Part shown: in pieces, positions 8,476 through 42,649 of the stretch | How the letters are laid out: every line of letters starts with the position of its first letter | Numbering within the stretch: position 1 is the first letter of the stretch | NCBI GenBank assembly: GCA_027486795.1 | Contig: JAIXOI010000023.1 | Location: 322,076-386,075 of the forward strand | From: Sphingobacteriales bacterium | GTDB lineage: Bacteria; Bacteroidota; Bacteroidia; Chitinophagales; CAIOSU01 | DNA: 64,000 bases | Reading direction: 5' to 3' | Notes under the pieces: model-generated | What the model was told of the DNA's origin: nothing | Seen by the model: the letters and a program-made list of their open reading frames with translations, nothing else | Database searches by the model: none | Translations under genes and position numbers: made by a program

Positions 8476-8594
8476 GGCAGTAGTTGGTGTGCTAGTATGT
8501 AGCTCACATACAAATTAAACCCCAATTTGGCAGACTGGCAACTTTACAGGGTTATAAGTGTAAGATGTCGCCGTGTAAAATAGACAACTATATT

Positions 8595-16052: not shown

Positions 16053-16069
16053 TTATCCCTTCCTGATTC

Positions 16070-16657
16070 CTATAAAGCCTTTAGTGCTAGTTTAATGATA
16101 ACTTCTACGGCAGCGTCTTTTCCCTCCGCTGCTATTACTTTATCTATTGCTTTTTCGGCTTGGTTGCGCTGGAAACCTAGTGCGACCAAGGCAGATAACG
16201 CCTCATCTCTATTGGTATTGCCTACACTGGTCATTAAAATTTCGGCCCCATCAACGGTTTTTATCATCTTGTCTTTGAGTTCCAAGATAATACGTTGTGC
16301 AGACTTGGCCCCAACGCCTTTTATTTTTTGCAACTGTACCACATTGCCCTGCATTATGGCCTTCTGCACCTCGCCCGGCACCATTGACGACAATGCCAGC
16401 CTAGCGGTAGACGGGCCAATGCCCGATACCGAAATTAAGTGGGTAAACACCTGCTTCTCCAATTCGTCGGCAAAACCATACAGGGTATGGCTTGTTTCGG
16501 TAATATGGAGGTACGTATGCACCAATGCTTCGTCTTTGTCTTGCAACTGGCCGAAGGTATTAAGGCTTATAAATACCTGATAACCAATTCCGCCAGACTC
16601 AACAATGAGGTATACGGGTGTTTTTACAGTAAGCTTACCTTTTATGTAAGCAATCAT
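16070..16657 (-). CDS. ruvA: Holliday junction branch migration complex subunit RuvA
   Basis: The track ORF (16070..16810) is N-terminally over-extended. The conserved RuvA N-terminus MIAYIKGKLTVKTPVYLIVESGGIGYQV starts at residue 52 (ATG at 16657). HhH motifs (SVSGIGPSTA, IKGVGAKSAQRI) are present. Confidence 0.9.
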   Translation of the reverse strand: MIAYIKGKLTVKTPVYLIVESGGIGYQVFISLNTFGQLQDKDEALVHTYLHITETSHTLYGFADELEKQVFTHLISVSGIGPSTARLALSSMVPGEVQKAIMQGNVVQLQKIKGVGAKSAQRIILELKDKMIKTVDGAEILMTSVGNTNRDEALSALVALGFQRNQAEKAIDKVIAAEGKDAAVEVIIKLALKAL

Positions 16658-16680
16658 TGGCAGTTTGGAGTTAGACAGGG

Positions 16681-16688
16681 CAAAGGTA
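16681..16688 (-). promoter_or_regulatory. Candidate Bacteroidota -7 promoter box (TACCTTTG) for ruvA
   Basis: The minus-strand sequence TACCTTTG fits TAnnTTTG and lies 23 nt upstream of the ruvA ATG. No clear -33 element was seen. Confidence 0.3.
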
Positions 16689-16858
16689 AAATTTTGATAA
16701 CACATTTTAACAGTGCACTGCAACGTAATATTGCACACAAGGATAATAAATTGGACAGACGGCAGATTGTAGGCCCAAGGTGATGCCATAATTATATACC
16801 ATAGAAGCATTTATGGTGGTTAATGCTGTGCCGTTTTAGGTTTCTTTGTCCATTTAGG

Positions 16859-18040
16859 CTACCCCGAGTGCCCATAAATAGTAGGTTTCCGTTTGCCCAG
16901 GTGCGAGTAAATTGCATAGCGTATGGCATCGCAGGCGTGGTCGTTGTCCTTAACGGGGTCGTCGAGCAAGTTGCCTTCGGCATCGGTCTTCCAGGTGTAA
17001 TTATCCAGTTCATTCAGCACGTTCACACTATTTTGCACCACATGTATGCGGTACTCCTTCACCTTACCGATACCACTAAACACGCTTTTTTCGGCACCCT
17101 TTACGTGGTATCCGGCCTGTTGTATCTCCTTTATTTTTTCGGGGCTGGCACTATCCGCATATATGTTGTCGGTTTTGCTTATCTCTAGCCTATCCATTAA
17201 ATCAATCATTGCCGGTGTGGTAAGGCGGCGCTTGTAAAAAACCTCCTCTAGGTAAATGTCTTTTTCGTAGTAAGCCACCCGTACCATAGCGCAAGGGTTG
17301 TTGTAGCCAAAATCGAGGCCATACAGCGTTTCGGTGACGTTTTCGGGTATCCTGCTAATGATTTTGTAGTCGTAAATAATGGCATTGCTGTTTTCGCCCC
17401 ACTCGGCAAGCGCGTATATTTTGTAGTATTCGGGGTCAAGTTCCTTCATTTCGGCCAGCATTTCGCCAAATGCCGCACCAACTTTGGTGTTATCAGAATG
17501 AACAGTTATCAACTTAAAGGTATTTATGGGTTCGCGTGCATAAAACTGTTGGTAGACAAAATTCTTTTTGCTGATGGGGTTGAAGGTGCAGATAATTTGC
17601 AAATAAGTTTCCGTTTCGCCCCGAAGCCTTAAATCAAGCTGCCTGAAATCCCTTGCGCTCAACTCAGTGGCCTCCTCTACCCACATACCTGTAGGTTGTG
17701 CCAGACTTTTCAGTTTTTCGGGGTCGTCTACGCCTGTAGTTATAAGGGTATTGCCGTTTTTCAAACATTCAATTTCTAGCCTGCTTTCCGAAAATTTAAA
17801 CTCGTCTTGCCAGCCATGGAAATAAATCACATCCTTTAATTGCTGATACACGCTATTGCGAATGGTCCGGGCCACCTTGCGCACCACCACAAACCGATGG
17901 CCGGTTTCGGCCTTCATGCGGTAGAGTATTTTTTGGGCTGCGAAAAAACTTTTGCCACTACCCGCTCCGCCCATTAACATTAGGTAGCGGCTTTGATTGG
18001 TAAAAGCTGGGTGATATATGGTAAGAATATGATCGGTCAT
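16859..18040 (-). CDS. Phage terminase large subunit (PBSX/TIGR01547-like)
   Basis: Walker A motif MLMGGAGSGKSFFAAQK. C-terminal RNaseH-like nuclease motifs (GLDFGYNNP, IYADSASPEKIKEIQQAGYHVKGAEK, HACDAIRY). The start was trimmed to MTDHILTIY (ATG at 18040). Confidence 0.85.
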   Translation of the reverse strand: MTDHILTIYHPAFTNQSRYLMLMGGAGSGKSFFAAQKILYRMKAETGHRFVVVRKVARTIRNSVYQQLKDVIYFHGWQDEFKFSESRLEIECLKNGNTLITTGVDDPEKLKSLAQPTGMWVEEATELSARDFRQLDLRLRGETETYLQIICTFNPISKKNFVYQQFYAREPINTFKLITVHSDNTKVGAAFGEMLAEMKELDPEYYKIYALAEWGENSNAIIYDYKIISRIPENVTETLYGLDFGYNNPCAMVRVAYYEKDIYLEEVFYKRRLTTPAMIDLMDRLEISKTDNIYADSASPEKIKEIQQAGYHVKGAEKSVFSGIGKVKEYRIHVVQNSVNVLNELDNYTWKTDAEGNLLDDPVKDNDHACDAIRYAIYSHLGKRKPTIYGHSG

Positions 18041-18155
18041 GATAAGGCAAATTGGTTTTGGGGATAGGGACAATACACAGGCCGATGGCTGCAAAAACGC
18101 GCCAAAAGGTGAGTATGAAAATGTAAGATTTTTGGGTGCCTAAGCGGCTATTGCA

Positions 18156-18680
18156 TTATACCGAAGCCTTAGGCTCCATAACTGCTAAGTAAGGGAAAAT
18201 CCAGGTGGGGTCGGTGTCTTCGGCCTCAATACGGTACCATTTGCTGCCAAGTTTCAGAAAACCTTTCAGCACAAATATTTTCCCATTAAACAATTGCTCG
18301 TAATGGAATGGGCGGCCATTGAGTTTTACTTTGGTTTTGCCATCGGTTATGGGTATGCCCTTAAACTCGGCCATGGTAAAGCACTTGGCATCTTTTACCA
18401 CTTCGCTATCGCATACCAGCAGAAAGGTTTCCAGGTCTTCCACCTTCATGCCGGGCGTGGTGGTTACTATCAATTCTAGGCTAGCTACTTCTTCTTGTTT
18501 AGTTTTAGAAAGCTTAGCAACTGGCAGCTCGTTTGGTTCGTTTGTGCCTGCACCGCTGCCTTTAGCTGCCGCAGTATCCGTTTGGTTGGTTGCACCCGGC
18601 GCATCGGCGCCATTGCCACCAAAGTTGCACGCCGCAAAAGCCATAACCAGTATGACAAAAGTATAAAGTAGAGTTTTCAT
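18156..18680 (-). CDS. Hypothetical lipoprotein
   Basis: 174 aa. It has a signal peptide with a lipobox (MAFAACN), followed by a low-complexity G/A/T linker. Confidence 0.6.
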   Translation of the reverse strand: MKTLLYTFVILVMAFAACNFGGNGADAPGATNQTDTAAAKGSGAGTNEPNELPVAKLSKTKQEEVASLELIVTTTPGMKVEDLETFLLVCDSEVVKDAKCFTMAEFKGIPITDGKTKVKLNGRPFHYEQLFNGKIFVLKGFLKLGSKWYRIEAEDTDPTWIFPYLAVMEPKASV

Positions 18681-18720
18681 AGCAGGGTGGGTTCAAATCC
18701 AGAATTGTTGAGCAAATCGC

Positions 18721-19344
18721 TTATATCATTACAAATTTGCTTTCCTTAAATAGCTCTCGCAAATCGGGTGGCATACCGGTTATGCGGTCTTTAAAGTCGT
18801 TTAGCTCATCCAAGCTTTTGTTAGATAGTAGCTGCACCATCTCGTCCAAGGCCTTCATGCCCAAAATCAAAGGCATCAAGGTATAGGCCATTTTATCGCC
18901 GTTAAACGATGCCACCATTTGGTATTCGGTAAGCTCGGCGCGTGGCACACTGGTAACGGCGCATTGCCCTATCCAGCTATTCACGTCAAAGTCTTCGCGG
19001 GCGTAAAAATCATTGGCTCTGGCTTCTAAATCGGCATGGGTGCGCATATACTCCTGCCTATTGCGTTTCGATTCCGTGGAGAGACGCGCTTCCATTTCGG
19101 CATGGCACTCCATACAAATGGCGTACTCAAAAATAATGTCCTGCACGTTGTACTTCACATAGCGTTTCACAGCCTTCTCAACCATATACCAGGTTTCGGG
19201 CTGCAGCAAACCCTTCTCGCAAACGCTGCAGCGCTCAAATGGCTTGCCCGTGGCCTCCGAATAAAACTCTTTCGGTATTGCTACCAGCTTCGGGAACTCC
19301 TCTGCTTCTTGCTCTTCATCAAAATCTTCAAAATCATTATTCAT
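18721..19344 (-). CDS. Hypothetical protein with acidic N-terminus and CxxC...CxxC zinc-ribbon-like motif
   Basis: 207 aa. Motifs are CSVCEKG ... CMECHAEM. No family was recognised. Confidence 0.5.
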   Translation of the reverse strand: MNNDFEDFDEEQEAEEFPKLVAIPKEFYSEATGKPFERCSVCEKGLLQPETWYMVEKAVKRYVKYNVQDIIFEYAICMECHAEMEARLSTESKRNRQEYMRTHADLEARANDFYAREDFDVNSWIGQCAVTSVPRAELTEYQMVASFNGDKMAYTLMPLILGMKALDEMVQLLSNKSLDELNDFKDRITGMPPDLRELFKESKFVMI

Positions 19345-19423
19345 AGTTGCACGCTTATAGCATAAAAGTAAGGCAAAAGGGCGATTAGTAAAAACAATAA
19401 ACTAAAACCCGTTGTTTGCGTAT

Positions 19424-19876
19424 ATGTTAAAGACAAACCCGATGGCTATGGAAAACGTTTCGCGCATTGAAGTATTGCTTGAGTTTGGCCGCATTTGGCT
19501 ACGCGACGATGGCATTGTACAAGTAACCATTGACAACGGAGCCCATATTCGGTACCGCGAAGCCCAAAAATTGATGGAGACCATCAGTGGCCTCTCACGG
19601 TATACCAGCCGCCCTATAGTGGTTGACCTAACCAAAATAGCCAGTATTGAAACCAGCGCCAAGCTGCATTTCATCAGCACCCGAACCGACAACCATAACC
19701 TTTGCATGGCCATGATTATTGCCTCGCCATATGGCAAAATGGTGGCCAACCTATCACTTTTGTTCCAACATCCAGGTTGCCCAACTCGCTATTTCAATTC
19801 GCCAGAGGGCGCTTTGCATTGGAGCGGGCGTTTCCAACCGAGCCAAACAGAGGCTGTACATACCTTTGCAGCCTAA
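19424..19876 (+). CDS. STAS/SpoIIAA-like domain protein
   Basis: The track ORF starts at TTG 19412; the first ATG is at 19424. The pattern (IVQVTI..., RPIVVDLTKI..., FNSPEGALHW) resembles STAS/SEC14-like (DUF3478-type) proteins. Confidence 0.45.
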   Translation: MLKTNPMAMENVSRIEVLLEFGRIWLRDDGIVQVTIDNGAHIRYREAQKLMETISGLSRYTSRPIVVDLTKIASIETSAKLHFISTRTDNHNLCMAMIIASPYGKMVANLSLLFQHPGCPTRYFNSPEGALHWSGRFQPSQTEAVHTFAA

Positions 19877-26140: not shown

Positions 26141-27295
26141 CTATAATAGCTCCAAAAACGCAGCAAGACTTATTGCTTCGGTGTTTTCGTTAATGGCATA
26201 GCGCTCTGTGCCGGGGTAGATGATGAAGTTTTTGGCAGTGTTTAATTCGTTGGCCGAGATAGCGTACCCTTTCGAAAATTTTGGAGCCATGCTGCGTTTA
26301 ACTTCTACGGCCCATATTTCTTTGTTCGGGCGCTCCACTAGCAAATCAATCTCATTGCCCGACGAGGTACGGTAGAAATAAACGCCAGATTGGTTTTCGT
26401 CGAGTAAGCTGCAAATATTCTCTATCACAAAACCTTCCCAGCTCATACCAACAATGGGGTGCGACAATAACGCCTCTTTGTTTTCGATACCCAGCAAGGC
26501 GTGCAGTAATCCGCTATCGCGCACATATACTTTTGGAGATTTAATGAGGCGTTTGCCGTGGTTGCCATGGTAAGGCCGCAGTTTGCGCACCAACAGCAAA
26601 TCAACCAACAAATCAAGATAGCTCATTACCGTTTTGCCATCTACGCCCAATGAGCCCGCCAATTGCGATGCATTGAGCGTAGTGCCTTGCAGGTGGGCCA
26701 GCATGGTCCAGAACCGGCGCAGTGTTTCGGCAGGTATGCGCGGACCCAATTGGGGTATATCGCGCTCAAGGTAGGTGCGTATAAAGTTTTTGCGCCACAA
26801 CATGCTTTTAACATCGCTTGCAGCCATCACGCTATCCGGAAAGCCACCCCGAACCCATAGCTTATCCATATCCTTGGGGTACTCGGTAAGGTTCAAGGGA
26901 AACAATTCGCAATAAGCGATGCGGCCGGCCAAGCTCTCGCCCGACTGTTTCAATAAATCCATGGAGGCAGAGCCCAACAACAGGAACTGACCGGTTTTGC
27001 GGCCCGCCCTGCGGTTTTTGTCAATAATGCCCCTAAGCTCTTGAAAAAGTTGCGGCATGCGTTGCACTTCGTCCATTATCACCAACTTATCTTGGTGGCT
27101 GGCTAGGTAGTAGGCAGGGTTTGCCAACTTTGCCCGGTCTTCCTCGCTTTCCAAATCCAGATAAAGCGTATTATGCGTGCGCGCTAGATCCATAGCCAAG
27201 GTGGTTTTGCCCACTTGGCGTGGCCCAAGCAAAGCCACTGCCGGAAAAGTATCCAGCAATTCGCTTACTTCTTCATATTTTTTACGCTCAATCAT
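26141..27295 (-). CDS. AAA ATPase with DUF4143 and C-terminal PD-(D/E)xK-like nuclease motif (COG1373 family); moron inside the head module
   Basis: 384 aa. It has Walker A (LLGPRQVGKTT), Walker B (VIMDEVQ), a central wHTH-like DUF4143 region, and a C-terminal EIDLLVE...AVEVK motif. Confidence 0.8.
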   Translation of the reverse strand: MIERKKYEEVSELLDTFPAVALLGPRQVGKTTLAMDLARTHNTLYLDLESEEDRAKLANPAYYLASHQDKLVIMDEVQRMPQLFQELRGIIDKNRRAGRKTGQFLLLGSASMDLLKQSGESLAGRIAYCELFPLNLTEYPKDMDKLWVRGGFPDSVMAASDVKSMLWRKNFIRTYLERDIPQLGPRIPAETLRRFWTMLAHLQGTTLNASQLAGSLGVDGKTVMSYLDLLVDLLLVRKLRPYHGNHGKRLIKSPKVYVRDSGLLHALLGIENKEALLSHPIVGMSWEGFVIENICSLLDENQSGVYFYRTSSGNEIDLLVERPNKEIWAVEVKRSMAPKFSKGYAISANELNTAKNFIIYPGTERYAINENTEAISLAAFLELL

Positions 27296-32657: not shown

Positions 32658-35285
32658 TTATTGGTTTCCTTTTAAATGCAGCTTATCAAATCGTTTTGGT
32701 CGGCCCTGTTCGTTTCGCTGCGATGCGAACATTATTTCGCGGCCATCGGTGGTATACAGGTAGCCACCTTGCACCAAAAAATTACCATCTTGGGTGAAGG
32801 TAAAGGCCCTATATCGGTCGGTATTGGAGGTGCCGCCACCCACTTGTATTATATCGTCGCGGCTAACCACATTATAAGCACCCAGCACGGTTTGGTTGCG
32901 GGCCGCAGCAATAGCGCCTTGCCCCAAGGCCACCGAAGCAGTGCCTGCTGCCGCCCAGTTGCCAGTGCCGTTGTGCAGCACTGTCGAGGGCGTATCGGAA
33001 AGCGACCCTAAATGTTCATTGCCATATTGCGAAGCCCTACCCGTGCCACGCCCCAGTGTGGGTGCCATTTGGCTAATGGAGCTATAGTTGGCTTGGGTGG
33101 TTAAATCGAGCTCGATGTTGTTCGATGCCAGCACGGGCAGCAGCGTAACCTTTACCGGCAAACACAATGCTGGCCTATAATCGGCAATGGTGGTGATGTA
33201 ATAATAACCCTTGATAGTTGGGTGGTTGATGTAAATGGGCCGTTGCAAATTGAGTTGCAAAACATCCGTTAAATCGAGCTTGAAATAGGCGATAACCTGC
33301 CTGCCATCCTCAATTTGGGCTATGGTGTTTTTGTAATAATTGTTTACCAAACCCTGCACGCCACTATAAGCCAAAACATCGCTACTCAATACCGGGTATT
33401 TTAACCTAAAAGAAGGGTTACGGCCAAACAGCCAAGCCGAGGTTTTGGGTTGCCCCAATCTGTTGGGCAACGTTTTAGCTTTATAGCCCTCGTAGTATAG
33501 TACCCGTGGCACAAAGTCATAACTCGCATCGGGGTATGGTGCAAGGTCTTTCCACAACCGCGGTATCTCTGGGGCGGCGTTTGATTGATTGAAAGGATTG
33601 AAAATGTTCCAATCTTGGAACGTAAGGGTATAGGCAAAGTTTTTAGTGCCCAACTCTTGGTTGCCGGGGTTGTATTTTATGGGCAACTTATGCGCCAACG
33701 AACCCGGTTGTTTATTGGTGGTTTCGGCACGCTCTTTCAAAAAAGCATCTTTAGTATCGAGCTTATATTGAAACGTTACATCCCGCTTATAATCGTCTAT
33801 ATACTGTATTTCGGCTTCTCTAGACAAATCAAACTTACCCGTCCAATCGTGCGCTTCTGTGAGCGGCATTAAGAACAGATCCCTAGGCTCACAATAAACC
33901 TTCTTGGCAATGGTATCGGTGCGAAAGTATAAGTTGAACATGTTCATAATGCCCGTGAGCACATCAATCAACTTTACATCCGGTAGCACTTGCGAAACCT
34001 CATAGGTGGCCCCTTCCACAATATCGCCCGTTATGGCATTACTAAACTCCAATTGCTGTATTTCGAAACGAGGGCTTTTGTTTTGCAAATTGAAGTTTGA
34101 TAAGCCCCAATTGTGGGTCTTTACGATGGTATACACACCCAATTGCTCGCCTTGGGCAAAGGGTAATAGTTGGGTATCGACGGTTACATTTACGGTTTGC
34201 CCATTGCTGGTAAACACTACGGCCTCCTCGGTTATGGGCACTAAATTGCCGCCCACCAACCTGCCCACACCAATGCCCAGATACTTCAGGTTTTGATGCC
34301 AATGGGTGCTTTTAATTCTCGCAGCAATTACAAATTGTTGCATACTGCTGCTAGGCACGGTATAAACTTGCGTATTGTAGTTATTGCCGTTGTCAAAATA
34401 CCCGGCACAGTCGTTCACAAGCAATATAGTTGGGCCAATGGTGCTGTTTTTGGGAAGGTTGGCAAATGCCTTTGGCTGGCATAGTACCGACTTAAAAAGC
34501 ATTGCATCGTTGGCATTGGCTGCTTTGGTAAAAGCATCGCCAGTAAAAGCCAAAACCAGTTTTTTAAAGAAAATCGATTCACAAAAGTCGCTCTCAAGGT
34601 TATAGCCAGCCTTGCTAAAAGCCTCGCGCAGTATGTGGGCAATAGAAACATCGGGTCGCAAATCTTCCATCACCACTTTGTTGCCCGATTTCCAAGCACC
34701 GTAGCTTTTTAGGCCGTATACAAAATCAAACTTATCAGGGAAGTTAGCCCAACTGGCCAACGCATATGCCTCGGTATAGGGGTGCGATTTGGTGGTTGCC
34801 GCCACTTGCAGCGGGTTGTAGCCAAAGCCTTCTGAGAGTTCATCGTTATAGTAAGTAGCCGTGCGGTTGCCATAGTCAATATCACGTATGGTATGGTCTT
34901 TCATGTATTCAATCCAATCGAGGTTATCGCCAATCAGCTCTAAGTCGTATTCGGCAGGGCGGCTGTGTTGCGATACATTATTGATTTTGAGTTTGCCGCT
35001 AAAAAACGGAATACCATTGCACAATACCTCAGCCCTGCACGATGCATGCTTTTGGTAAAAGTTGATGCCGATTTGATAGATGTATTCCAGCAAACGATTG
35101 TTGAGCTTACTTGCCGGCACCTTAAAGGTTTTGGAGAAGCTACCACTTCGTTTGGTGATATCGGTAAAATCACCGGTAGACCAGGTTAACGCCAGCGGGA
35201 AATCGGCATGGTCAGTAAGTTCCAAAGTACCCAAAGGCTGGGTAAAATCTTCGGAGTATATGTTGAGGCTGATTTGCGGGTTCAT
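32658..35285 (-). CDS. Large phage tail/baseplate structural protein
   Basis: 875 aa, adjacent to the TMP-like gene (4-nt spacer). No enzymatic motif was recognised. Confidence 0.5.
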   Translation of the reverse strand: MNPQISLNIYSEDFTQPLGTLELTDHADFPLALTWSTGDFTDITKRSGSFSKTFKVPASKLNNRLLEYIYQIGINFYQKHASCRAEVLCNGIPFFSGKLKINNVSQHSRPAEYDLELIGDNLDWIEYMKDHTIRDIDYGNRTATYYNDELSEGFGYNPLQVAATTKSHPYTEAYALASWANFPDKFDFVYGLKSYGAWKSGNKVVMEDLRPDVSIAHILREAFSKAGYNLESDFCESIFFKKLVLAFTGDAFTKAANANDAMLFKSVLCQPKAFANLPKNSTIGPTILLVNDCAGYFDNGNNYNTQVYTVPSSSMQQFVIAARIKSTHWHQNLKYLGIGVGRLVGGNLVPITEEAVVFTSNGQTVNVTVDTQLLPFAQGEQLGVYTIVKTHNWGLSNFNLQNKSPRFEIQQLEFSNAITGDIVEGATYEVSQVLPDVKLIDVLTGIMNMFNLYFRTDTIAKKVYCEPRDLFLMPLTEAHDWTGKFDLSREAEIQYIDDYKRDVTFQYKLDTKDAFLKERAETTNKQPGSLAHKLPIKYNPGNQELGTKNFAYTLTFQDWNIFNPFNQSNAAPEIPRLWKDLAPYPDASYDFVPRVLYYEGYKAKTLPNRLGQPKTSAWLFGRNPSFRLKYPVLSSDVLAYSGVQGLVNNYYKNTIAQIEDGRQVIAYFKLDLTDVLQLNLQRPIYINHPTIKGYYYITTIADYRPALCLPVKVTLLPVLASNNIELDLTTQANYSSISQMAPTLGRGTGRASQYGNEHLGSLSDTPSTVLHNGTGNWAAAGTASVALGQGAIAAARNQTVLGAYNVVSRDDIIQVGGGTSNTDRYRAFTFTQDGNFLVQGGYLYTTDGREIMFASQRNEQGRPKRFDKLHLKGNQ

Positions 35286-35505: not shown

Positions 35506-37128
35506 TCAATTGCGCTGCAAAATCATATCGTTGGCATATTCCAGTTCAACCCTAAGGCGCAGTATATTTTTAACTGGGTCGAGTATTTCAAACTCCCCAT
35601 CGCGGAGCAACACGGGCAGCAGCTTATCGCCTTGCTGCACATACACGGCAGGGCTGGTAAGCAATTCCTGCAGCCACACCATTTCGTCGGGCCGCAATGC
35701 ATCGCTGGAGCACGATAGCCGCACAGCTCCTTGCTTATGCAACACCTGCCTACCCCGGTTGGTAGCATTAAACCAAGTAGGCTTCAGTTTTTCAAAACTG
35801 CTGCTTTCGGTCTTTATGCTGCTTTTTTCGGCACCGGCAAACGTGTAGCTATCCATGCCGCCCAAGCGGTTCAAGAAATGCACGCGGGTAGCGTGGCAGT
35901 TGGATTTGGTTAGGCGATAGCGCTTGGTTTCACTAAAAACTCGAATGCCCGAAACGTTGACATCATCAAAATAAACCGTTAGCCCCGACCACGCACCAGC
36001 CTTATCAACCACCAATCTTGCGGCAGTATCTTGCCCAGTAACTACTTGCGTGGTCATTAGCACCCATTGATTTAAAGTGCCTGCATTCCAAGTGTTAGTG
36101 TACGTTACGCTGGCATCGGTTAATCCCTCCACCCCAATGCGCATGCTGGGCGGTTGGATGGTCGATTTAGTGCCCGTGCAATACACCCAGCACGAGAAAG
36201 TGTAGGTAGTATATTGCGCCAAGGGCAACACGGATGCTGATTTCCAGCCATTGTGAAAACTACCACTGCTTGGCCCATCGGAAAAATTGACTTTCAACGA
36301 TTTCGTTCCCGTATGGGCAAACGCATTGCTTTGCTGGCCCGAGGTGAAGCCTGGCCCAGCCAAAAACCCATTGATACTGGCTTCCATAGTGCCGCCATCC
36401 ATATCCAAAAAGAAATTCTCATTACCGCTAGAGGTAATAGTCACATCATAGTGGCTGTGGGCCTCGGTAACGGTTAAGGCTTGCACCAAATTCAAACTGT
36501 TCGGGCCAACGGCTATGTCAAAGCGCTTTTTGCCCACTATTCCTGATGATAAGGCAATATTGATAATAGTTGGTACTGGATTGCCCGGCTCATAGGTTTT
36601 AATGTTAGCCACTAGGCTAGTTGTCGTATCTGCAACTATGGCTAGTGTTTCGTATTCGTCAATCTGTACTTCTTTTTCGGGCATGGAGCTGGTAAGAAAG
36701 CGCTTAGCGCCGTTGCCATCCATAATATAAGGCGACAAGCTGGGCTCAACATCTGGCTGCAAACCGCCGTTAATAGCAGTTATAGGCGTGCTGATTTGAA
36801 ACGCTGTTTGGTCGTCGTTCAAAAACACACAAAACACCTTTACACTAGCATCCGGGGCTTCGAGCGCACCAAATTCGATGGGCTGGTGCAGGTTATAGGC
36901 CAGTTTGTCTTGCAATACTTGCTCTAGCCTAAAGGTAAACGTGTCCGCACTTCCAAAATCTATTTGCTGGCTCCATTGGGCAATAAGCGTGGTGGTATCG
37001 GCATGATACAGCGCTATACCCACCGTTTGCGAAGCGCCGATGGGCGAAACGCGTATTTTATACTCAATGGGGTTGTAGGCCGCCACTATGCTAGCCGGTT
37101 GGCCAACTATTGATAAGGTAATAGCCAT
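35506..37128 (-). CDS. Phage structural protein with a central jelly-roll/CBM-like insert
   Basis: 540 aa. Residues ~235-390 resemble CBM4/9/22-type lectin modules (GNENFFLDMDGG..., HTGTKSLKV, YTFSCWVY, VYFDDVNV). Confidence 0.45.
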   Translation of the reverse strand: MAITLSIVGQPASIVAAYNPIEYKIRVSPIGASQTVGIALYHADTTTLIAQWSQQIDFGSADTFTFRLEQVLQDKLAYNLHQPIEFGALEAPDASVKVFCVFLNDDQTAFQISTPITAINGGLQPDVEPSLSPYIMDGNGAKRFLTSSMPEKEVQIDEYETLAIVADTTTSLVANIKTYEPGNPVPTIINIALSSGIVGKKRFDIAVGPNSLNLVQALTVTEAHSHYDVTITSSGNENFFLDMDGGTMEASINGFLAGPGFTSGQQSNAFAHTGTKSLKVNFSDGPSSGSFHNGWKSASVLPLAQYTTYTFSCWVYCTGTKSTIQPPSMRIGVEGLTDASVTYTNTWNAGTLNQWVLMTTQVVTGQDTAARLVVDKAGAWSGLTVYFDDVNVSGIRVFSETKRYRLTKSNCHATRVHFLNRLGGMDSYTFAGAEKSSIKTESSSFEKLKPTWFNATNRGRQVLHKQGAVRLSCSSDALRPDEMVWLQELLTSPAVYVQQGDKLLPVLLRDGEFEILDPVKNILRLRVELEYANDMILQRN

Positions 37129-37134
37129 GTTGGG

Positions 37135-37437
37135 TTATAATTCTTGATCCAAAAAATCGTTCAAATCTCGCTGCACAGCCGCTTCAATCATTCGGTTGAT
37201 GGCTGCTTCCTCGCTGCTGATGGCAGCATCTAAAAACCCGCTACGGTCGTTCACTTTGCGACCATAATCTTCCATACGGGTGCTCAGCTGGTATTCATTA
37301 GGTGCACTGTTCAATTCGGTTTGCACCGAGCCGCTCAGCTTGCCCGTTTTGTTGTGTTGGCGCAGATCCAATTCGCGTTTTATGGCCGCATCCAATCGGG
37401 CGGCGGCTTCTTGTAGGGCTAGTTCTAGATTTTTCAT
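37135..37437 (-). CDS. Hypothetical phage protein
   Basis: 100 aa. It has a 4-bp overlap with the upstream gene. Confidence 0.45.
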   Translation of the reverse strand: MKNLELALQEAAARLDAAIKRELDLRQHNKTGKLSGSVQTELNSAPNEYQLSTRMEDYGRKVNDRSGFLDAAISSEEAAINRMIEAAVQRDLNDFLDQEL

Positions 37438-37907
37438 AGCGTTGGGTAGTTAAAAGTTCCTGCTAGGCAATCGCCTTGGCAGCGTATTTGCAGGGTGTAG
37501 GTGAGTTCAATCAATCGGTCTTGATGTTTTCGGTACTGCCAGTTGCCGACCACTTTCTCCTCGTTTTCTATTTTCCAAGGGAAGCCATTGGCTTTGTAGC
37601 GGGCTTTAAATTCAAACAGAAATTGCTCGGCCAATACTTCCAGGTCGCGCTGCTTGGTTTGGCTAGCAGTGGCCATCTCTTCGGGCCTTGGGTACCTATC
37701 GAAAAACGACAATTTGAGCTGATACACCCGTTGTCGGGTTTTCATGTTCATGCCCTCAATGCGCACATTACGGTCAATAAATAGCAGCGGATAGTCCTTG
37801 TTGCGTTGGTTGTTAATTTCAAAAGGCTCGCCATACATCAGGCCATTGAGCCCTGCTTGTGCCTGGGCAATGGTTTCTATTTCGCTTATCAGTTGGGTTA
37901 TAGTCAT
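37434..37907 (-). CDS. Hypothetical phage protein
   Basis: 157 aa with operon-like packing. No motif was recognised. Confidence 0.45.
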   Translation of the reverse strand: MTITQLISEIETIAQAQAGLNGLMYGEPFEINNQRNKDYPLLFIDRNVRIEGMNMKTRQRVYQLKLSFFDRYPRPEEMATASQTKQRDLEVLAEQFLFEFKARYKANGFPWKIENEEKVVGNWQYRKHQDRLIELTYTLQIRCQGDCLAGTFNYPTL

Positions 37908-37969: not shown

Positions 37970-38728
37970 TTAGCTATTCAGGTCAAAAAGGTCGGGCACT
38001 TCTACTATGCCGTAATTGCTAAAGTGAACCAACGGCTGCCCGGGTTGCCAAGCATTAAACTGCTCAACCTTTTGGGCAATGTTGCCAAAGTTTCGGGCGG
38101 CGCTGCTATTGCGCAGCTTTCGGCCAATATCCTTTCGAACGTAGCTAAAGTGGTGCATCATCAGTTCGTGCTCGGCAAACAAATAGCACCGTTCAATAGG
38201 CTTTACGCCCCTAGTTGGGTCCACCAGCACCGGGAATTTGCCCCCTGCCTTCATTCCTGTCTTTAGCCTGCCCATAAAAGGCACCCAGTAGTTTTCCATG
38301 GGCTGCAACCGATAGGTAGGCTGCTTAAAGTAGGTGTACAGCCTGCAGGCAGATGCATCGTATTCGCCCAGCTCCAATTTGGCCTTAGCGGCAGCAAAGG
38401 CCTGGGTGTCGTAATATTCATCGTTGTCTAAAAACAAATAGTGGGTGCAGCCCAACTCCATTGCCCAATCGAGGCCAATCTGTCTTTTCATGCGCTCGTT
38501 ATTGCTCGGGGTGAGGTTAAGGTCCGGCTCGTACTTGCGCAATCGTACCTTCTGCCAGCGTTGTTTAATGGCAGCTAGCGTGGTCAATAATTCGGGGTAG
38601 TACTCTCCAATGTTCGATTGCAATTGGTACACAATCAGCACCTCGTCCACCTGGTCAACTATCTGGGCAATGCTACCTTCCAATAGTTCTTCCCCATCAA
38701 AAGTGTTGTATATAGCGGCTAAAGACAT
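37970..38728 (-). CDS. Glycosyltransferase, GT-A fold (family 2-like)
   Basis: 252 aa. The N-terminus has AAIYNTFDGEELLEGSI. A DxD-type motif (FLDNDEYY) is present. Confidence 0.55.
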   Translation of the reverse strand: MSLAAIYNTFDGEELLEGSIAQIVDQVDEVLIVYQLQSNIGEYYPELLTTLAAIKQRWQKVRLRKYEPDLNLTPSNNERMKRQIGLDWAMELGCTHYLFLDNDEYYDTQAFAAAKAKLELGEYDASACRLYTYFKQPTYRLQPMENYWVPFMGRLKTGMKAGGKFPVLVDPTRGVKPIERCYLFAEHELMMHHFSYVRKDIGRKLRNSSAARNFGNIAQKVEQFNAWQPGQPLVHFSNYGIVEVPDLFDLNS

Positions 38729-38733
38729 AATTG

Positions 38734-38768
38734 GGTTACGGGTTATCAGTTACGGGATTCGAGTTGGT
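38734..38768. repeat. Heptamer tandem repeat array (GGTTACG GGTTATC AGTTACG GGATTCG AGTTGGT)
   Basis: The array begins 6 nt 5' of the GT ATG at 38728. It overlaps the last codons of the upstream GT gene. It belongs to the same RGTTRCG family as 21121-21163 and 40955-40979. Confidence 0.75.
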
Positions 38769-39666
38769 AATAATTTGAAGTCAGTGCTTCTAGCCGGTTT
38801 TGCCAAGTGAGTTGGCTATGGGCGAGGTCGCAGCCGTTGGCAGCTATGCGCATGCGTGCCATATCGTTGCGCAAGTAATACCTAATCATTTCCAATAGCT
38901 CCGGTATGCTTCTAAAAGTATCAAGGTGTGTTCCTACCCTAAAATCGTCTTCTATGCTTTGGTAGTGATGCGATAGGCAAAGTGCACCCGCACCAAGAAT
39001 ATTGAACATGCGGCCGCTGCTGTACCTTGGGTAATCGAAATGACTGAGGTTAATGGCCATTTTGGCGCCGCGGTATATGTCGGCTTCGCGCGCTGGTTTT
39101 TTGTTCAGGTTTTCGGTGGCATAGGGCCAACCTGTGCCACATACGGCAAACGAAAAGTCGCGCTGTTGGTGCAAGGTTTTCACCAACTCCATCCGGTAGC
39201 TGCTTAGCGGAAAAGTGCTGCCATAGTTATTCGCCATAAAAACCACATCCGCCAAGTGTTCGGCTGGGCCGCTGGGTACAAATATTTCGTCCTCAAAACC
39301 CATGGGCAAATAGCCCGCATTCAAGCCTTGCTTGCGAAGTACTGCGACATCGTACTCGTTGGTAAACAAGGTAATATCAAAGTGCGGCGCCATATCCAAG
39401 TACCATTTCGGTGTCGGGAAACGCACATCGCCGGTCCAGTTTACCTTGTATCCACTCAACCCTTTTAAGGTCTCGATGCGAATAATACCGGGTGTTTGCA
39501 ATTGAAAAAAGCACAAATCGAATTGCTGTTGGTGTGCCAGTTTTTGCAAGGTGGCATTTACGTTAGGGTCTTTGCGCCAATTTACTTCCGTGAGTTGCCC
39601 AAGGCCCGCAAGTGCTTTACGCAGTGCATGCTGGTGGTCACCCAGGCTTACATATAGCACGTTCAT
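38746..39666 (-). CDS. Glycosyltransferase, CgeB/Glyco_trans_1_2-like (GT-B C-terminal domain)
   Basis: 306 aa. The C-terminal half (YRGAKMAINLSH...SGRMFNILGAGALCLSHH...FRSIPELLEMIRYYLRNDMARMRIAANG) matches the PF13524-type pattern. Confidence 0.6.
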   Translation of the reverse strand: MNVLYVSLGDHQHALRKALAGLGQLTEVNWRKDPNVNATLQKLAHQQQFDLCFFQLQTPGIIRIETLKGLSGYKVNWTGDVRFPTPKWYLDMAPHFDITLFTNEYDVAVLRKQGLNAGYLPMGFEDEIFVPSGPAEHLADVVFMANNYGSTFPLSSYRMELVKTLHQQRDFSFAVCGTGWPYATENLNKKPAREADIYRGAKMAINLSHFDYPRYSSGRMFNILGAGALCLSHHYQSIEDDFRVGTHLDTFRSIPELLEMIRYYLRNDMARMRIAANGCDLAHSQLTWQNRLEALTSNYYQLESRN

Positions 39667-40277
39667 AGCAGTGTAGGGTTAATGGTTAAATAAGGTCCAG
39701 GAACGGTTTCGTGGCGGCTATAGCTGCGCAAGTTGGTAAGATGCAAATGGCAAGCCTTAATGGTTTTTGATGGGTTGGTAACCCTCATACCCGCTTCGGT
39801 CAGTTCATATGCCAAGCGGTTGTCACACCCAGGCTTACCTGGGCAATAGTTACCTTCAATACCCCTCAACTTAGGCCAGTATATCCAAGCATCTTGGCTG
39901 CAGTCTTTATTGTAAAACTTCAGACCTCTTGCTTTAGTCACATCCCAGCGCGTTAGGGCATAGCAATCGTTAGGTTTCAGGTATTGCGCCTCCGCCAGCG
40001 ACTCGTCAAAGTAAATGTCGGTATTGGCCAGTATAACAATGCCTTGCAACTCGTTGCCAAGTTTTATCAAGTCTTTAAACAAAGCCCTGCGCCCTACTTG
40101 CCTCACCTTTATTTTCGGGTGGTAGGGTATATCTGGCTCGCCATCTACCACAAGCCACCCTTTTTTAATCAATGGGTGCTCTAGGTTGCGGGCCAAGCAA
40201 TACAAAAGCTCAGCCCTGCGCCCGGCATCGGGCTCGTGGTACCAACTGGTAATAAGTGTAAACATGGGGTTGGGCAA
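39663..40277 (-). CDS. Putative glycosyltransferase-like protein (GT-A-like; weak call)
   Basis: 204 aa. Motifs are ITSWYHEP, ILANTDIYFDESL (DxD-like), SQDAWIY and PGCDNRLAYEL. Confidence 0.35.
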   Translation of the reverse strand: MPNPMFTLITSWYHEPDAGRRAELLYCLARNLEHPLIKKGWLVVDGEPDIPYHPKIKVRQVGRRALFKDLIKLGNELQGIVILANTDIYFDESLAEAQYLKPNDCYALTRWDVTKARGLKFYNKDCSQDAWIYWPKLRGIEGNYCPGKPGCDNRLAYELTEAGMRVTNPSKTIKACHLHLTNLRSYSRHETVPGPYLTINPTLL

Positions 40278-40748
40278 TTACTTGTTGTGCAATAGGTTCA
40301 CCAATTCCCTGAAGCGCATTAGGCGCTCTTCATCGGTGGTAAATTGGTCTCTGATAAATAGATCGCGCAAAGCTTTTAGCTGAACACGCTCTGGCTCGGG
40401 CAATTGGCCGTTTTTTAACCGGTCTTTGGCCACTTCAAGGACCTGCTGCTTATGCTCTTTTAAATGGGCCAATTGCTTTTGCCGCAGCGCCTGTTGTTGC
40501 TTGAGGTCGTTCTCAAATTCGGTAAGGTACACTTGCTGCGAGCGCCATTGCTCGGTATACACCATCAGTTCCTCACGCTTTTTGCTGGCTTGCTCTCGGT
40601 AGTTATAGTTCTTCGCTGGGTCGGTTTCTTGCTGGGCCAGTGTATCATATAGCTCAATGCCTTCGGCAATCAGTTTTATGCGTTGGTCTAGCAGAGCTAT
40701 TTTGGCCCGTATGTCGTCCAGCGCTTGGGGTAGTTCAAGTTTTTGCAT
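40278..40748 (-). CDS. Coiled-coil hypothetical protein
   Basis: 156 aa, rich in Q/E/K/L with heptad character. Confidence 0.45.
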   Translation of the reverse strand: MQKLELPQALDDIRAKIALLDQRIKLIAEGIELYDTLAQQETDPAKNYNYREQASKKREELMVYTEQWRSQQVYLTEFENDLKQQQALRQKQLAHLKEHKQQVLEVAKDRLKNGQLPEPERVQLKALRDLFIRDQFTTDEERLMRFRELVNLLHNK

Positions 40749-40755
40749 GGTGCGT

Positions 40756-40938
40756 TTAGGCGTTTCTGGTTTTCTGGGTAAAATTTATCCAGGCATAAAA
40801 GGCGCCTACGCCATAGCCAAAAATGAAATTCCAGAGTTGTGGCCAACCCCCTTTAGCAGCCAAGGCAAAGGCAATAATGAGTAATAAGGGTACCGATAGC
40901 ACCAACAATAGGGGCTTTAATTTGGAAAGGGTAATCAT
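40756..40938 (-). CDS. Small two-TM membrane protein
   Basis: 60 aa with two hydrophobic helices. Confidence 0.4.
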   Translation of the reverse strand: MITLSKLKPLLLVLSVPLLLIIAFALAAKGGWPQLWNFIFGYGVGAFYAWINFTQKTRNA

Positions 40939-40954
40939 GTTAAAAATGGTTTTA

Positions 40955-40979
40955 GGTTACGAGTTGCGGGTTACGGGTT
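40955..40979. repeat. Heptamer tandem repeat array (GGTTACG AGTTGCG GGTTACG GGTT)
   Basis: The array lies 17 nt 5' of the ATG at 40938. The 17-mer at 40956-40972 is identical to 21136-21152. An inverted partial copy, AACTCGCAAC, is at ~41005-41014. Confidence 0.85.
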
Positions 40980-41027
40980 TTAATTCAATAGTCATAAGGG
41001 CAAGTTTTTAACTCGCAACCTCAATTT

Positions 41028-41813
41028 TTAAAGGTCTTTGCTGTATTTCCAGGTAAAACGGTGGTGCTCGCATAGCACGCCCATGTGCACCAGGGGCTTA
41101 ATGCCTATAAGGTTGCTATCCATGTGCCAGAAGCTATCGCTAAAGGCCATGGGGTTGCTGGCATCAACCCTAAACTGCAGGCGCTGCATCAATCGCCGAC
41201 TAAATAGCGAGCACCCAATTGAAGGGGCGAAATACCGTTTCACGCGCCCATCAAATGCCGCAATACTCTCGTAGGGTGCCATTACTTTGTTGGCGCACCA
41301 ACCTTGGTAATTAATAACCGATAGCTGCACCCCTAGCGTGGTATGGGCCCCTTGTTTCAAAAAATAGGGTACGTTAATGTTTTCGGCCCTATAACTCAGC
41401 AATAGCTCAATAATATTCAATGGCGGAAAATTATCGCACTCCAAACTGAAGTAGTAATCATAATCGTTTTGCAGAAAATGCTCGCGTAGCATATTCTGGC
41501 TTTCGGCAATAAATGCTGGGGCACGCATACCCTTTGGTGGGCAATAGCCGCACTTATACCCCCACGACCATACTTCCTGGTGGAAACCCTCGTCGGGGCT
41601 ATTGTCCACCAGAAAGATGTCATAAGCCGGGTAAGTAAGCCCGGAAATGTGCTGCAGCCAATCGCGGAGAATGTACTCCTTGTTTCGGGAAATAGGAGCG
41701 GCCAACAGCACACGAGGAAGGGTAGTATTAAAATGTGAGACATGAAATGGGAAACTTGAAACCGCGTTGGCTTGGTTGTATGTTGTTTGAGGGTTTGCTA
41801 TTTCGCATTTCAT
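41028..41813 (-). CDS. Glycosyltransferase-like protein, GT-A fold
   Basis: 261 aa. VLLAAPISRNKEYILRDWLQHISGLTYPAYDIFLVDNSPDEG resembles a GT2 N-terminal nucleotide-sugar-binding region. Confidence 0.45.
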   Translation of the reverse strand: MKCEIANPQTTYNQANAVSSFPFHVSHFNTTLPRVLLAAPISRNKEYILRDWLQHISGLTYPAYDIFLVDNSPDEGFHQEVWSWGYKCGYCPPKGMRAPAFIAESQNMLREHFLQNDYDYYFSLECDNFPPLNIIELLLSYRAENINVPYFLKQGAHTTLGVQLSVINYQGWCANKVMAPYESIAAFDGRVKRYFAPSIGCSLFSRRLMQRLQFRVDASNPMAFSDSFWHMDSNLIGIKPLVHMGVLCEHHRFTWKYSKDL

Positions 41814-41825
41814 ATCTCACACTTT

Positions 41826-42116
41826 TTATTTTCTCCGTTTTGCCTTTGCCTCATCGGCATATACTTTTTGCAAGCGCTCATTAAAGCACTGCTCTTCGCG
41901 TTGCCGCGTGAGGAACTGGAAAACGGTATGTACGTTCAGGTTTTTAATATGCGCTAGCTGCCATAACTGGCCGGCAGCGGCAGTATACAGTAGGTTGTAC
42001 CACCCAAATTGATTTAGTGCACCAACTCCGGCTTTGCTGGCCTGGGCATTACTTTCGCCTCTAAATAGCGGTTGATACGTTTTAACCAAGTACTCGCGGA
42101 ACGAGCCAAAAAAAAA
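41826..42116 (-). CDS. -1 frame extension ORF (downstream half of a candidate frameshifted gene)
   Basis: The track ORF 41826..42089 starts at TTG. The same frame is open upstream through the T9 run (A9 on the plus strand, 42108-42116). It overlaps the 3' end of 42014..42649 in the -1 frame. Confidence 0.45.
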   Translation of the reverse strand, partial: FFFGSFREYLVKTYQPLFRGESNAQASKAGVGALNQFGWYNLLYTAAAGQLWQLAHIKNLNVHTVFQFLTRQREEQCFNERLQKVYADEAKAKRRK

Positions 42117-42649
42117 TAGGCATTCATGGCCTGGGTAAGCGGCAACCTGCCCATGGTAGCAGCCCGCTCGCTTATATCAATATCATCTAGGGTTTCGCCT
42201 TCTTTCAAAAACAGGGTAGCCAATACATAAGGTATCATTTCATACTTGCCGTGCATCAACTGCTCAATTTGCAGGGCTTCCAGAGCTTGCCCAAAGGTAG
42301 CTTTGCCCATGGGAGCCAGTTTGTTCAACAATTGCAAATCGGCAGGGGCATTGTAAAACGCGCCTTCGTGCTCAAAAGCTTTCAACTCCATGGGCTCTGG
42401 AAGCACGGTTAGTTTATCGGCCACGGCAAATATGCCCAGCACCAAATCGGGGTCTTTGTCTTTTACGGTATCCCAACCGGTCCAAAACTTTACAACCGCC
42501 TCTACATATTCTGGATAACGGGTAAATAAATCGAGTCCAGTAATTTTCGCCTTATCATCAAAACGCTTATCTAACTCTGGCTGAAGGGTCTCTAATAGCT
42601 TGCAATAATCAATGAATTGGGCAATGGATATTTTAGTTACGTCTATCAT
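42014..42649 (-). CDS. Hypothetical phage protein, first gene of the cluster (0-frame product; possible chaperone-like G/GT pair)
   Basis: 211 aa. It contains the sense-strand run TAT TTT TTT TTG at codons 178-181. Confidence 0.55.
   Translation of the reverse strand: MIDVTKISIAQFIDYCKLLETLQPELDKRFDDKAKITGLDLFTRYPEYVEAVVKFWTGWDTVKDKDPDLVLGIFAVADKLTVLPEPMELKAFEHEGAFYNAPADLQLLNKLAPMGKATFGQALEALQIEQLMHGKYEMIPYVLATLFLKEGETLDDIDISERAATMGRLPLTQAMNAYFFLARSASTWLKRINRYLEAKVMPRPAKPELVH

Follow-up and report, generated by a model that had tools for sequence, protein, structure and literature searches.

Introduction

Glycosylation of virions is reportedly a property of mycobacteriophages of the Che8, Corndog and Myrna types, in work said to have appeared in Cell Host Microbe. 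In the section of PMC12619734 that summarizes this work, mycobacteriophage glycans are placed on capsid and tail-tube C-termini (Freeman et al. 2023). Here we describe a candidate system from the Bacteroidota: a block of six genes at positions 37970-41813 of a 64,000-nucleotide stretch of contig JAIXOI010000023.1 (positions 322,076 to 386,075; the whole stretch is termed the window) from a Sphingobacteriales bacterium of the Chitinophagales, which codes for four predicted glycosyltransferases (GTs), named GT261, GT204, GT306 and GT252 after their lengths, inside a phage-derived structural cluster. As in the mycobacteriophage type, these are soluble phage GTs, often accompanied by methyltransferases, that are encoded in or beside structural genes and whose sets vary between related phages. 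In the mycobacteriophages, synthesis of the glycan takes place on particle proteins in the cytoplasm, a route that is also proposed here. The two differ in that the hosts there are Actinobacteria as opposed to Bacteroidota, three of the four enzymes here are without a curated family, and the carrier is replication-less and vertically inherited.

Several other systems offer partial parallels. Glycosylation of the Bacillus subtilis spore crust involves CgeB and CgeD, with CgeB belonging to the Pfam family Glyco_trans_1_2. GT306 is of the same Pfam family, and here too a cytoplasmic enzyme set would decorate an assembled protein shell; however, CgeB acts on the spore in the mother cell, the partners and genomic context are unrelated, and the likeness is one of family membership and analogy only. 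Giant viruses (chlorovirus A064R and A111/114R; mimivirus R699 and the PLOD-like GTs) also have virus-encoded multi-enzyme GT sets that are independent of the endoplasmic reticulum and Golgi or periplasm, and the best structural matches of GT261 include mimivirus R699 and collagen-type protein GTs; but these are viruses of eukaryotes and the similarity is at the level of the fold only (12-18% identity, template-modeling score (TM-score) ~0.6, generic for GT-A). The Gtr seroconversion cassettes are likewise phage-borne GT sets that change a glycan, whereas the block has no GtrA-like flippase, membrane-anchored GtrB or GtrC, and is no separately transcribed moron beside an attachment site; its only membrane protein is a product of 60 aa without a GtrA match in Pfam. 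Finally, the carrier recalls gene transfer agents (GTAs) of the RcGTA type: outside the block its genes are confined to head, tail, lysis and packaging functions, among them a PF11351 GTA-type holin, it is without integrase or replication genes, and its divergence tracks that of the host flanks. Unlike in that type, the cluster spans 25.8 kb here and its free-phage relatives 47 kb. We know of no GTA described with a GT cassette.

Results

Four predicted glycosyltransferases in a phage structural module

The region is very probably a genuine GT cassette of the structural module. Its six co-oriented open reading frames (ORFs), all on the minus strand and located where the initial annotation had put them (Table 1), are not a product of chance, since relatives keep all of them intact, in synteny and under purifying selection. 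That annotation had proposed three GT-A enzymes and one CgeB-like Glyco_trans_1_2 enzyme, lying within a phage structural operon with the first cluster gene on one side and the tail genes on the other. Both the assignments (from Pfam, AlphaFold/Foldseek and homologues) and the placement hold, and every sequence motif quoted for the GT ORFs is found as stated. The packing is tight, as claimed, but the spacing is not uniformly 0-4 nt, the successive gaps from the 87-aa ORF through the 157-aa gene being 12, 89, 7, 0, -4, 17 and 62 nt.

Table 1. Positions of the cassette, its neighbours and the carrier cluster in the window
Feature	Position	Strand	Description
Whole phage-derived cluster	16859-42649	-	25.8 kb, co-oriented; Pfam/PHROGs matches, synteny
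211-aa and 87-aa overlapping ORFs	41826-42649	-	First cluster gene(s); conserved upstream neighbour of the cassette
GT261	41028-41813	-	261 aa; motif IFLVDNSPDEG
89-nt spacer	40939-41027	-	Inverted repeat, imperfect (GGTTGCGAGTT ... AACTCGTAACC), with YCGYAAC heptamer repeats; precedes the 60-aa gene
60-aa small membrane protein	40756-40938	-	
156-aa protein	40278-40748	-	Charged, coiled-coil-like
GT204	39663-40277	-	204 aa; motif ILANTDIYFDES
GT306	38746-39666	-	306 aa; CgeB-like Glyco_trans_1_2
GT252	37970-38728	-	252 aa; motif YLFLDNDEYYD
157-aa protein	37434-37907	-	Conserved downstream neighbour of the cassette; opens the tail-side module

We searched Pfam, PHROGs, NCBIfam and the PDB (phmmer and profile hmmsearch) with single sequences and profiles, made family alignments from metagenomic homologues, and modeled GT261 and GT204 with AlphaFold2. 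Only GT306 passes a curated sequence-family cut-off, matching PF13524 (Glyco_trans_1_2) with 76.9 bits against a cut-off of 25 (E 2e-21; residues 160-295; profile positions 4-142 of 144). GT204 has no significant family in these searches, alone or as a profile. Its model (predicted local distance difference test (pLDDT) 94.5, predicted TM-score (pTM) 0.91) finds the catalytic domain of ppGalNAc-T2 (E 2e-7), B4GalT1, hyaluronan synthase and chondroitin synthase as its top Foldseek matches (E to 1e-5), and by this model GT204 is predicted to be a GT-A fold GT without a Pfam family. N85, D87, Q128, D129, C151 and D152 are invariant in the family, N153 is conserved and D91 nearly invariant (motif NTDIYFD). 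The true start is probably the ATG at 40265 rather than the TTG at 40277 chosen by the ORF finder, because homologues begin at the fifth residue, four codons downstream of the TTG. A PDB match of GT204 to CBL-C (E 8e-4) was discarded as spurious, being at odds with the confident GT-A model.

GT261 likewise has no significant match in Pfam, PHROGs, NCBIfam or the PDB by sequence, alone or as a profile. It has a sub-threshold similarity to Pfam Glyco_tranf_2_4 (E 0.021), as have 14 of 24 homologues, and of the GT2 families PF00535 and PF13704 neither is reached, the score for PF13704 being 15.7 bits against a gathering cut-off of 27.5. Its model (pLDDT 84.4, pTM 0.81) returns 400 PDB matches at E<=1e-3 in Foldseek, the top 50 of which are all GT-A enzymes; the best neighbours are COLGALT1, the GT domain of LH3, mimivirus R699, Mnn9 and WrtF (E down to 3e-11). 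Among the viral structures of BFVD it finds GT-A proteins of phages and giant viruses, with a best TM-score of 0.80. On these grounds GT261 is modeled as a GT-A fold GT. Across 24 sequences E125 and D127 (LECDNF) are invariant and D70, N71 and S72 (VDNS) invariant or nearly so, a predicted acidic motif of the DxD type; residues 1-33 form a disordered extension specific to the genus.

For GT252 itself Pfam and the other sequence-family searches gave no match, and the family consensus scores 18.6 bits with PF00535, under the cut-off of 23.3. Five of the 26 homologues do match PF00535, and P0018, which is 53% identical to GT252, exceeds the cut-off with 27.6 bits over the DxD region. With D101-x-D103-E104 invariant in the family, GT252 reads as a divergent, GT2-like GT-A enzyme. 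Its homologues also occur in Lak megaphages and, within a glycan cluster, on a marine phage-like contig of 175 kb (L012, with PhoH and dUTPase). This 11-kb cluster, at 7538-18598 of the contig, combines the GT252 homologue with GT2, GT25 and GT10 enzymes, two sulfotransferases, methyltransferases and three nucleoside diphosphate (NDP)-sugar dehydratase/epimerase genes.

In a word-indexed search the families of the 204-, 261- and 252-aa proteins comprise 38, 33 and 612 relatives, respectively. The three GT-A families are not recent paralogues, since hhalign shows no relationship among them. Three uncharacterised protein families gain a predicted GT-A fold, and the GT assignments stood up to the searches that the initial annotation had named as a test of them. 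The similarity of the GT261 and GT204 models to protein-O-glycosylating enzymes is of a generic GT-A level (TM-score ~0.6, 10-18% identity), and the fold matches are no evidence on the acceptor. Hydropathy analysis found no transmembrane or signal-like hydrophobic segment in any of the four GTs.

A GT204-GT306 pair

A further feature, missed by the initial annotation, is the Rosetta-stone relationship between GT204 and GT306. GT306, used as query in an exhaustive search, recovered 2857 representative relatives with full-length alignment, and in 48 of the best 150 of these a full-length GT204-like domain is fused N-terminally to the GT306-like domain. In the window they are separate genes with a 4-nt overlap. 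GT204 and GT306 are accordingly predicted to be functional partners. One fusion lies on a 68-kb phage-like contig beside a ribonucleotide reductase, a GT252 homologue, two FkbM methyltransferases and a pyruvyl transferase, and another on an 18.6-kb phage-like contig with DnaB and a major capsid protein (MCP) of the SU10 type; in cyanophage S-SKS1 a GT204 homologue adjoins a nucleotide-sugar epimerase. Because this pair, often fused, is met with in several phage lineages that are unrelated to one another, it looks like a two-step glycosylation unit that is widespread among viruses.

The two small proteins

Of the two transmembrane segments first proposed for the 60-aa protein, one stands, with a Kyte-Doolittle maximum of 2.92 over residues 8-28, while the second is a weaker, aromatic segment. 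Within the genus no other protein of the block is as well conserved (88-98% identity; 88-95% to the copies in L002, L003 and L004). The 156-aa protein is charged, rich in Q, E, K and L, and without a hydrophobic segment; its gene has a ratio of nonsynonymous to synonymous substitution rates (dN/dS) of 0.12-0.13. In each of the free-phage relatives GT261 is followed by a protein of like size and character, and the one in L025 shows weak pairwise similarity to the 156-aa protein (E 3e-4). Composition and these positional counterparts suggest a coiled-coil-like protein.

An exchangeable cassette in uncultured free phages

The slot occupied by the block recurs in at least 10 viral or metagenomic relatives. 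Homologues of GT261 that are 45-50% identical to it are encoded on IMG/VR and metagenome contigs with a common gene order: TerL, the 211-aa homologue, an ORF of ~75 aa, GT261, a charged protein of ~155 aa, 3-5 kb of variable genes, GT252, the 157-aa homologue, counterparts of the 540-aa and 875-aa tail-side proteins, and the tape measure. The 211-aa homologues precede GT261 in loci L017-L025 and L032-L039, lying directly after TerL in the free phages, and the 157-aa homologues come after GT252 in L017, L018, L022, L025 and L039. Thus, the GT genes lie in or adjacent to structural genes, as would be looked for in virion glycosylation. The variable genes are of two sets. One comprises homologues of GT204 and GT306 with a pyruvyl transferase and methyltransferases (L023/L038, L025, L039), and the other two or three GT2s, an FkbM methyltransferase and unknown proteins (L017, L018, L019/L036, L022, L024).

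GT261 and GT252 are thus the conserved 5' and 3' brackets of the cassette, and from this comparison we conclude that the slot is an ancestral feature of the structural module of the lineage, with exchangeable glycan-tailoring content between the brackets. The initial annotation had not recognized it as a conserved, compositionally variable cassette of a whole uncultured phage lineage. In L019 an IS1595-family transposase, an N6 DNA methylase and a 377-aa ORF (15580-19496) sit between GT252 and the 157-aa gene, which marks the 3' edge of the cassette as an insertion hot spot.

The form of the free phage can be read from two assemblies. A near-complete phage is carried twice on a 94-kb metagenome contig (L036/L041), in copies that are 100% identical and 47,138 bp apart, which implies a genome of ~47.1 kb and a concatemeric assembly. 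A near-identical IMG/VR record of 46,951 bp (L019, L028 and L029) has its head module ordered as in the window and codes for a Toprim-DnaB primase-helicase and an ERF recombinase; no tyrosine integrase was found in it. The ~47.1-kb phage and the cluster have in common an unusual module order of TerL, 211-aa gene, GTs, tail, protease, MCP, portal, fibre and holin. The chromosomal copy looks like such a phage that has lost its replication genes and whose genome has been opened at the junction of TerL and the 211-aa gene. Searches of GenBank phages with tblastn recovered no close relatives: GT252 found only Lak megaphages (27%), GT204 found S-SKS1 and a 735-kb phage, GT261 and the MCP found nothing, and the portal gave only weak matches in Streptomyces phages.

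A replication-less, vertically inherited carrier

The cluster runs from TerL (16859-18094) to position 42649, is flanked by ruvA and an epimerase-like gene, and includes TerL, the PF11351 holin, the portal, a ClpP-type protease, an MCP-like protein, a tape-measure-like protein and large tail proteins. Pfam and PHROGs revealed no integrase or replication gene in it, and the contig as a whole has no integrase. Other species of the genus have the same cluster at 65-97% protein identity, with the same left junction (identical in four species). The synonymous divergence (dS) to the closest relative (L001) falls within the range of flanking host genes. A structural cluster without integration or replication genes, inherited vertically, is what is expected of a GTA, and this is what was found. 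It is a vertically inherited, replication-less derivative and no ordinary prophage, a point that had escaped the initial annotation.

Within the carrier the cassette stays among structural genes. Its six genes have a dN/dS (0.06-0.30 in comparison with the closest relative, 0.06-0.16 with more distant ones) that resembles that of structural genes, and all block ORFs are intact in at least five species. Co-occurrence was examined in 18 family genomes. Six of these (G000, G002, G003, G004, G008 and G010) have both the portal and GTs, and the fragmentary G005 has GTs only; GT261 is present in all seven GT-bearing genomes, and none of the four GTs was found in the 11 family genomes without the cluster. 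A host polysaccharide locus, an origin against which the block had to be checked, is therefore rejected, since within the family the GTs are never seen apart from the phage cluster. G008, which belongs to another genus, has the cluster elsewhere in its chromosome and in rearranged form, split and inverted over 205.9-238.5 kb of contig C1 (L007, L008), and still every GT lies among structural genes. One arm carries the 211/87, 156, GT204 and GT306 genes, with TerL 8.6 kb away, and the other strand GT252, tail genes, GT261, protease, MCP and portal; GT261 stands between the tape-measure-like gene and the protease module, and GT252 ahead of the 157-aa gene.

The finding is therefore broader than first read: virus-encoded glycosylation in structural operons was already known, and what is added is a modular phage glycosylation slot kept during domestication. 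The structural module of these uncultured Bacteroidota phages includes a conserved slot with exchangeable content, and the slot was kept under purifying selection as the phage shrank to a vertically inherited, particle-making cluster.

Discussion

Proposed function of the cassette

We propose that the block is the glycosylation cassette of the late structural module of an uncultured Bacteroidota phage lineage, which would have been retained in the 25.8-kb replication-less derivative inherited vertically in a Chitinophagales genus. It would be transcribed with the structural genes and expressed late. The four soluble cytoplasmic GTs would then build a short glycan stepwise from host nucleotide-sugars, with GT204 and GT306 acting as a pair, GT261 and GT252 forming a lineage-wide core, and the enzymes between them, being exchangeable, setting the structure of the glycan. 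The most likely acceptors would be one or more particle proteins assembled in the cytoplasm, namely capsid, tail or fibre. We infer co-transcription, the stepwise pathway and the particle as target with the mycobacteriophage virions and the Bacillus spore crust as models. The particles are probably sugar-coated, because the free-phage relatives keep the same slot with different enzymes, and the element has retained only particle, lysis and GT genes. That the particle proteins themselves are the target is an evenly balanced proposition.

Several observations weigh against particle proteins as acceptors. The structural proteins have no Ser/Thr-rich tails, and the check for Bacteroidota O-glycosylation motifs suggested by the initial annotation was negative, there being no excess of D(S/T)(A/I/L/V/M/T) in them; the O-glycosylation system of Bacteroidota is in any case periplasmic. 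The block includes a membrane protein of 60 aa that is very well conserved in the genus. A GT204 homologue (36% identical) resides in an ordinary Bacteroidota chromosomal glycan cluster. Pathways for polysaccharides linked to undecaprenyl phosphate also typically use soluble cytoplasmic GTs, so that a lipid-linked acceptor is compatible with enzymes devoid of transmembrane segments. Moreover, no single enzyme but GT261 is indispensable, since GT252 is deleted in one species and GT204 and GT306 are absent in another. In the former, G003, GT252 was lost by an internal deletion (L005 778-948, corresponding to window ~38031-38788) that left its last 23 codons and altered the C-terminus of GT306; the latter, G010, has GT261 and GT252.

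The main rival is modification of the host surface, by which lipopolysaccharide, capsule or surface glycoproteins would be altered via lipid-linked intermediates at the inner membrane, with the effect of blocking superinfection, masking receptors or keeping released particles off debris. We consider this unlikely, though it has several points in its favor: the conserved small membrane protein could anchor a complex, the integrated element has the block close to one of its ends, the GT204 homologue belongs to a chromosomal glycan cluster, and phage GTs are treated as classic agents of seroconversion in the relevant part of PMC12619734. However, Pfam recognizes no flippase, polymerase, ligase or initiating phosphoglycosyl transferase in the block, nor any GtrA-, GtrB- or GtrC-like membrane protein, and the GTs are without transmembrane segments. 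There is no separate promoter or terminator: neither a Bacteroidota -7 box (TAnnTTTG) nor a convincing terminator was found inside the GT block, unlike at the candidate AAA_14/DUF4143 moron of the same cluster (see below). The 60-aa protein was detected only in genus-level copies, with no homologue in G008 or the viral relatives, which still keep the GTs. Furthermore, the slot of the free phages is internal to the structural module, directly after TerL, and the GTs of the rearranged G008 cluster are scattered among structural genes.

Somewhat less probable still is another cytoplasmic target or a soluble or lipid glycoconjugate, such as a small molecule, a non-structural phage protein or a host protein modified in the course of takeover. 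Of the four enzymes, three do come from uncharacterised families, and homologues in very large phage genomes stand in broad sugar-metabolism clusters with sulfotransferases, methyltransferases and NDP-sugar dehydratases. Against it, the position of the slot inside the structural module is fixed across the lineage, and the slot was kept by an element that lost all but structural, lysis and GT genes.

Hypermodification of DNA, by which sugars on hydroxymethylated bases of the packaged DNA would evade restriction, is highly improbable. Sets of multiple GTs that build glycans on phage DNA are known, to go by the passage of PMC12619734 that reports them (Pyle et al. 2024), and one GT252 homologue has a very weak match to TAGT (E 0.089). 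We rate DNA glycosylation low because no hydroxymethylase was found: the PF00303 thymidylate-synthase-like hydroxymethylase is absent from the essentially complete 47-kb free relative and three other viral contigs, with positive controls, and the 25.8-kb element has no hydroxymethylase, the TET/JBP search being uninformative as its control was silent. A replication-less element, presumably packaging host-made DNA, would also be without a route to modified bases. That the block is a decaying cargo remnant with no current function, as the deletion of GT252 in G003 and the absence of GT204 and GT306 from G010 might suggest, is scarcely credible given the ORFs intact in at least five species, the invariant catalytic motifs and the dN/dS of 0.06-0.16.

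If the glycan is indeed placed on the particle, a more speculative extension may be ventured, which we hold only tentatively: the Chitinophagales element would be a domesticated GTA-like particle coated with a glycan from its own four-enzyme cassette, and the exchangeable middle would act as a 'glycotype' switch that diversifies the surface with respect to recognition, stability or evasion of host or predator defence. To our knowledge, self-encoded virion glycosylation of bacteriophages has been shown experimentally only in actinobacteriophages. If true, this would be the first phage-like particle to glycosylate itself apart from Actinobacteria phages and giant viruses, and a glycosylated GTA-like element would likewise be a first. 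The natural variants, namely the two cassette types, the GT252 deletion and the species with GT261 and GT252 only, could then link glycan structure to particle function.

Other genes of the cluster

Two tail-side proteins, of 540 aa (35506-37128) and 875 aa (32658-35285), show only 36-37% identity between species of the genus (for the 875-aa protein, in G002), their neighbours 65-90%; the 540-aa protein has a weak CBM_4_9 match. Their divergence suggests diversifying receptor-binding proteins, which in turn suggests that binding to cells is still a property of the particles. An AAA_14/DUF4143 gene (26141-27295), situated between the 187-aa gene and the portal, is missing from the G002 copy, where a gap of 233 nt remains. 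It is preceded by two TAACTTTG boxes and is consistent with a recent moron.

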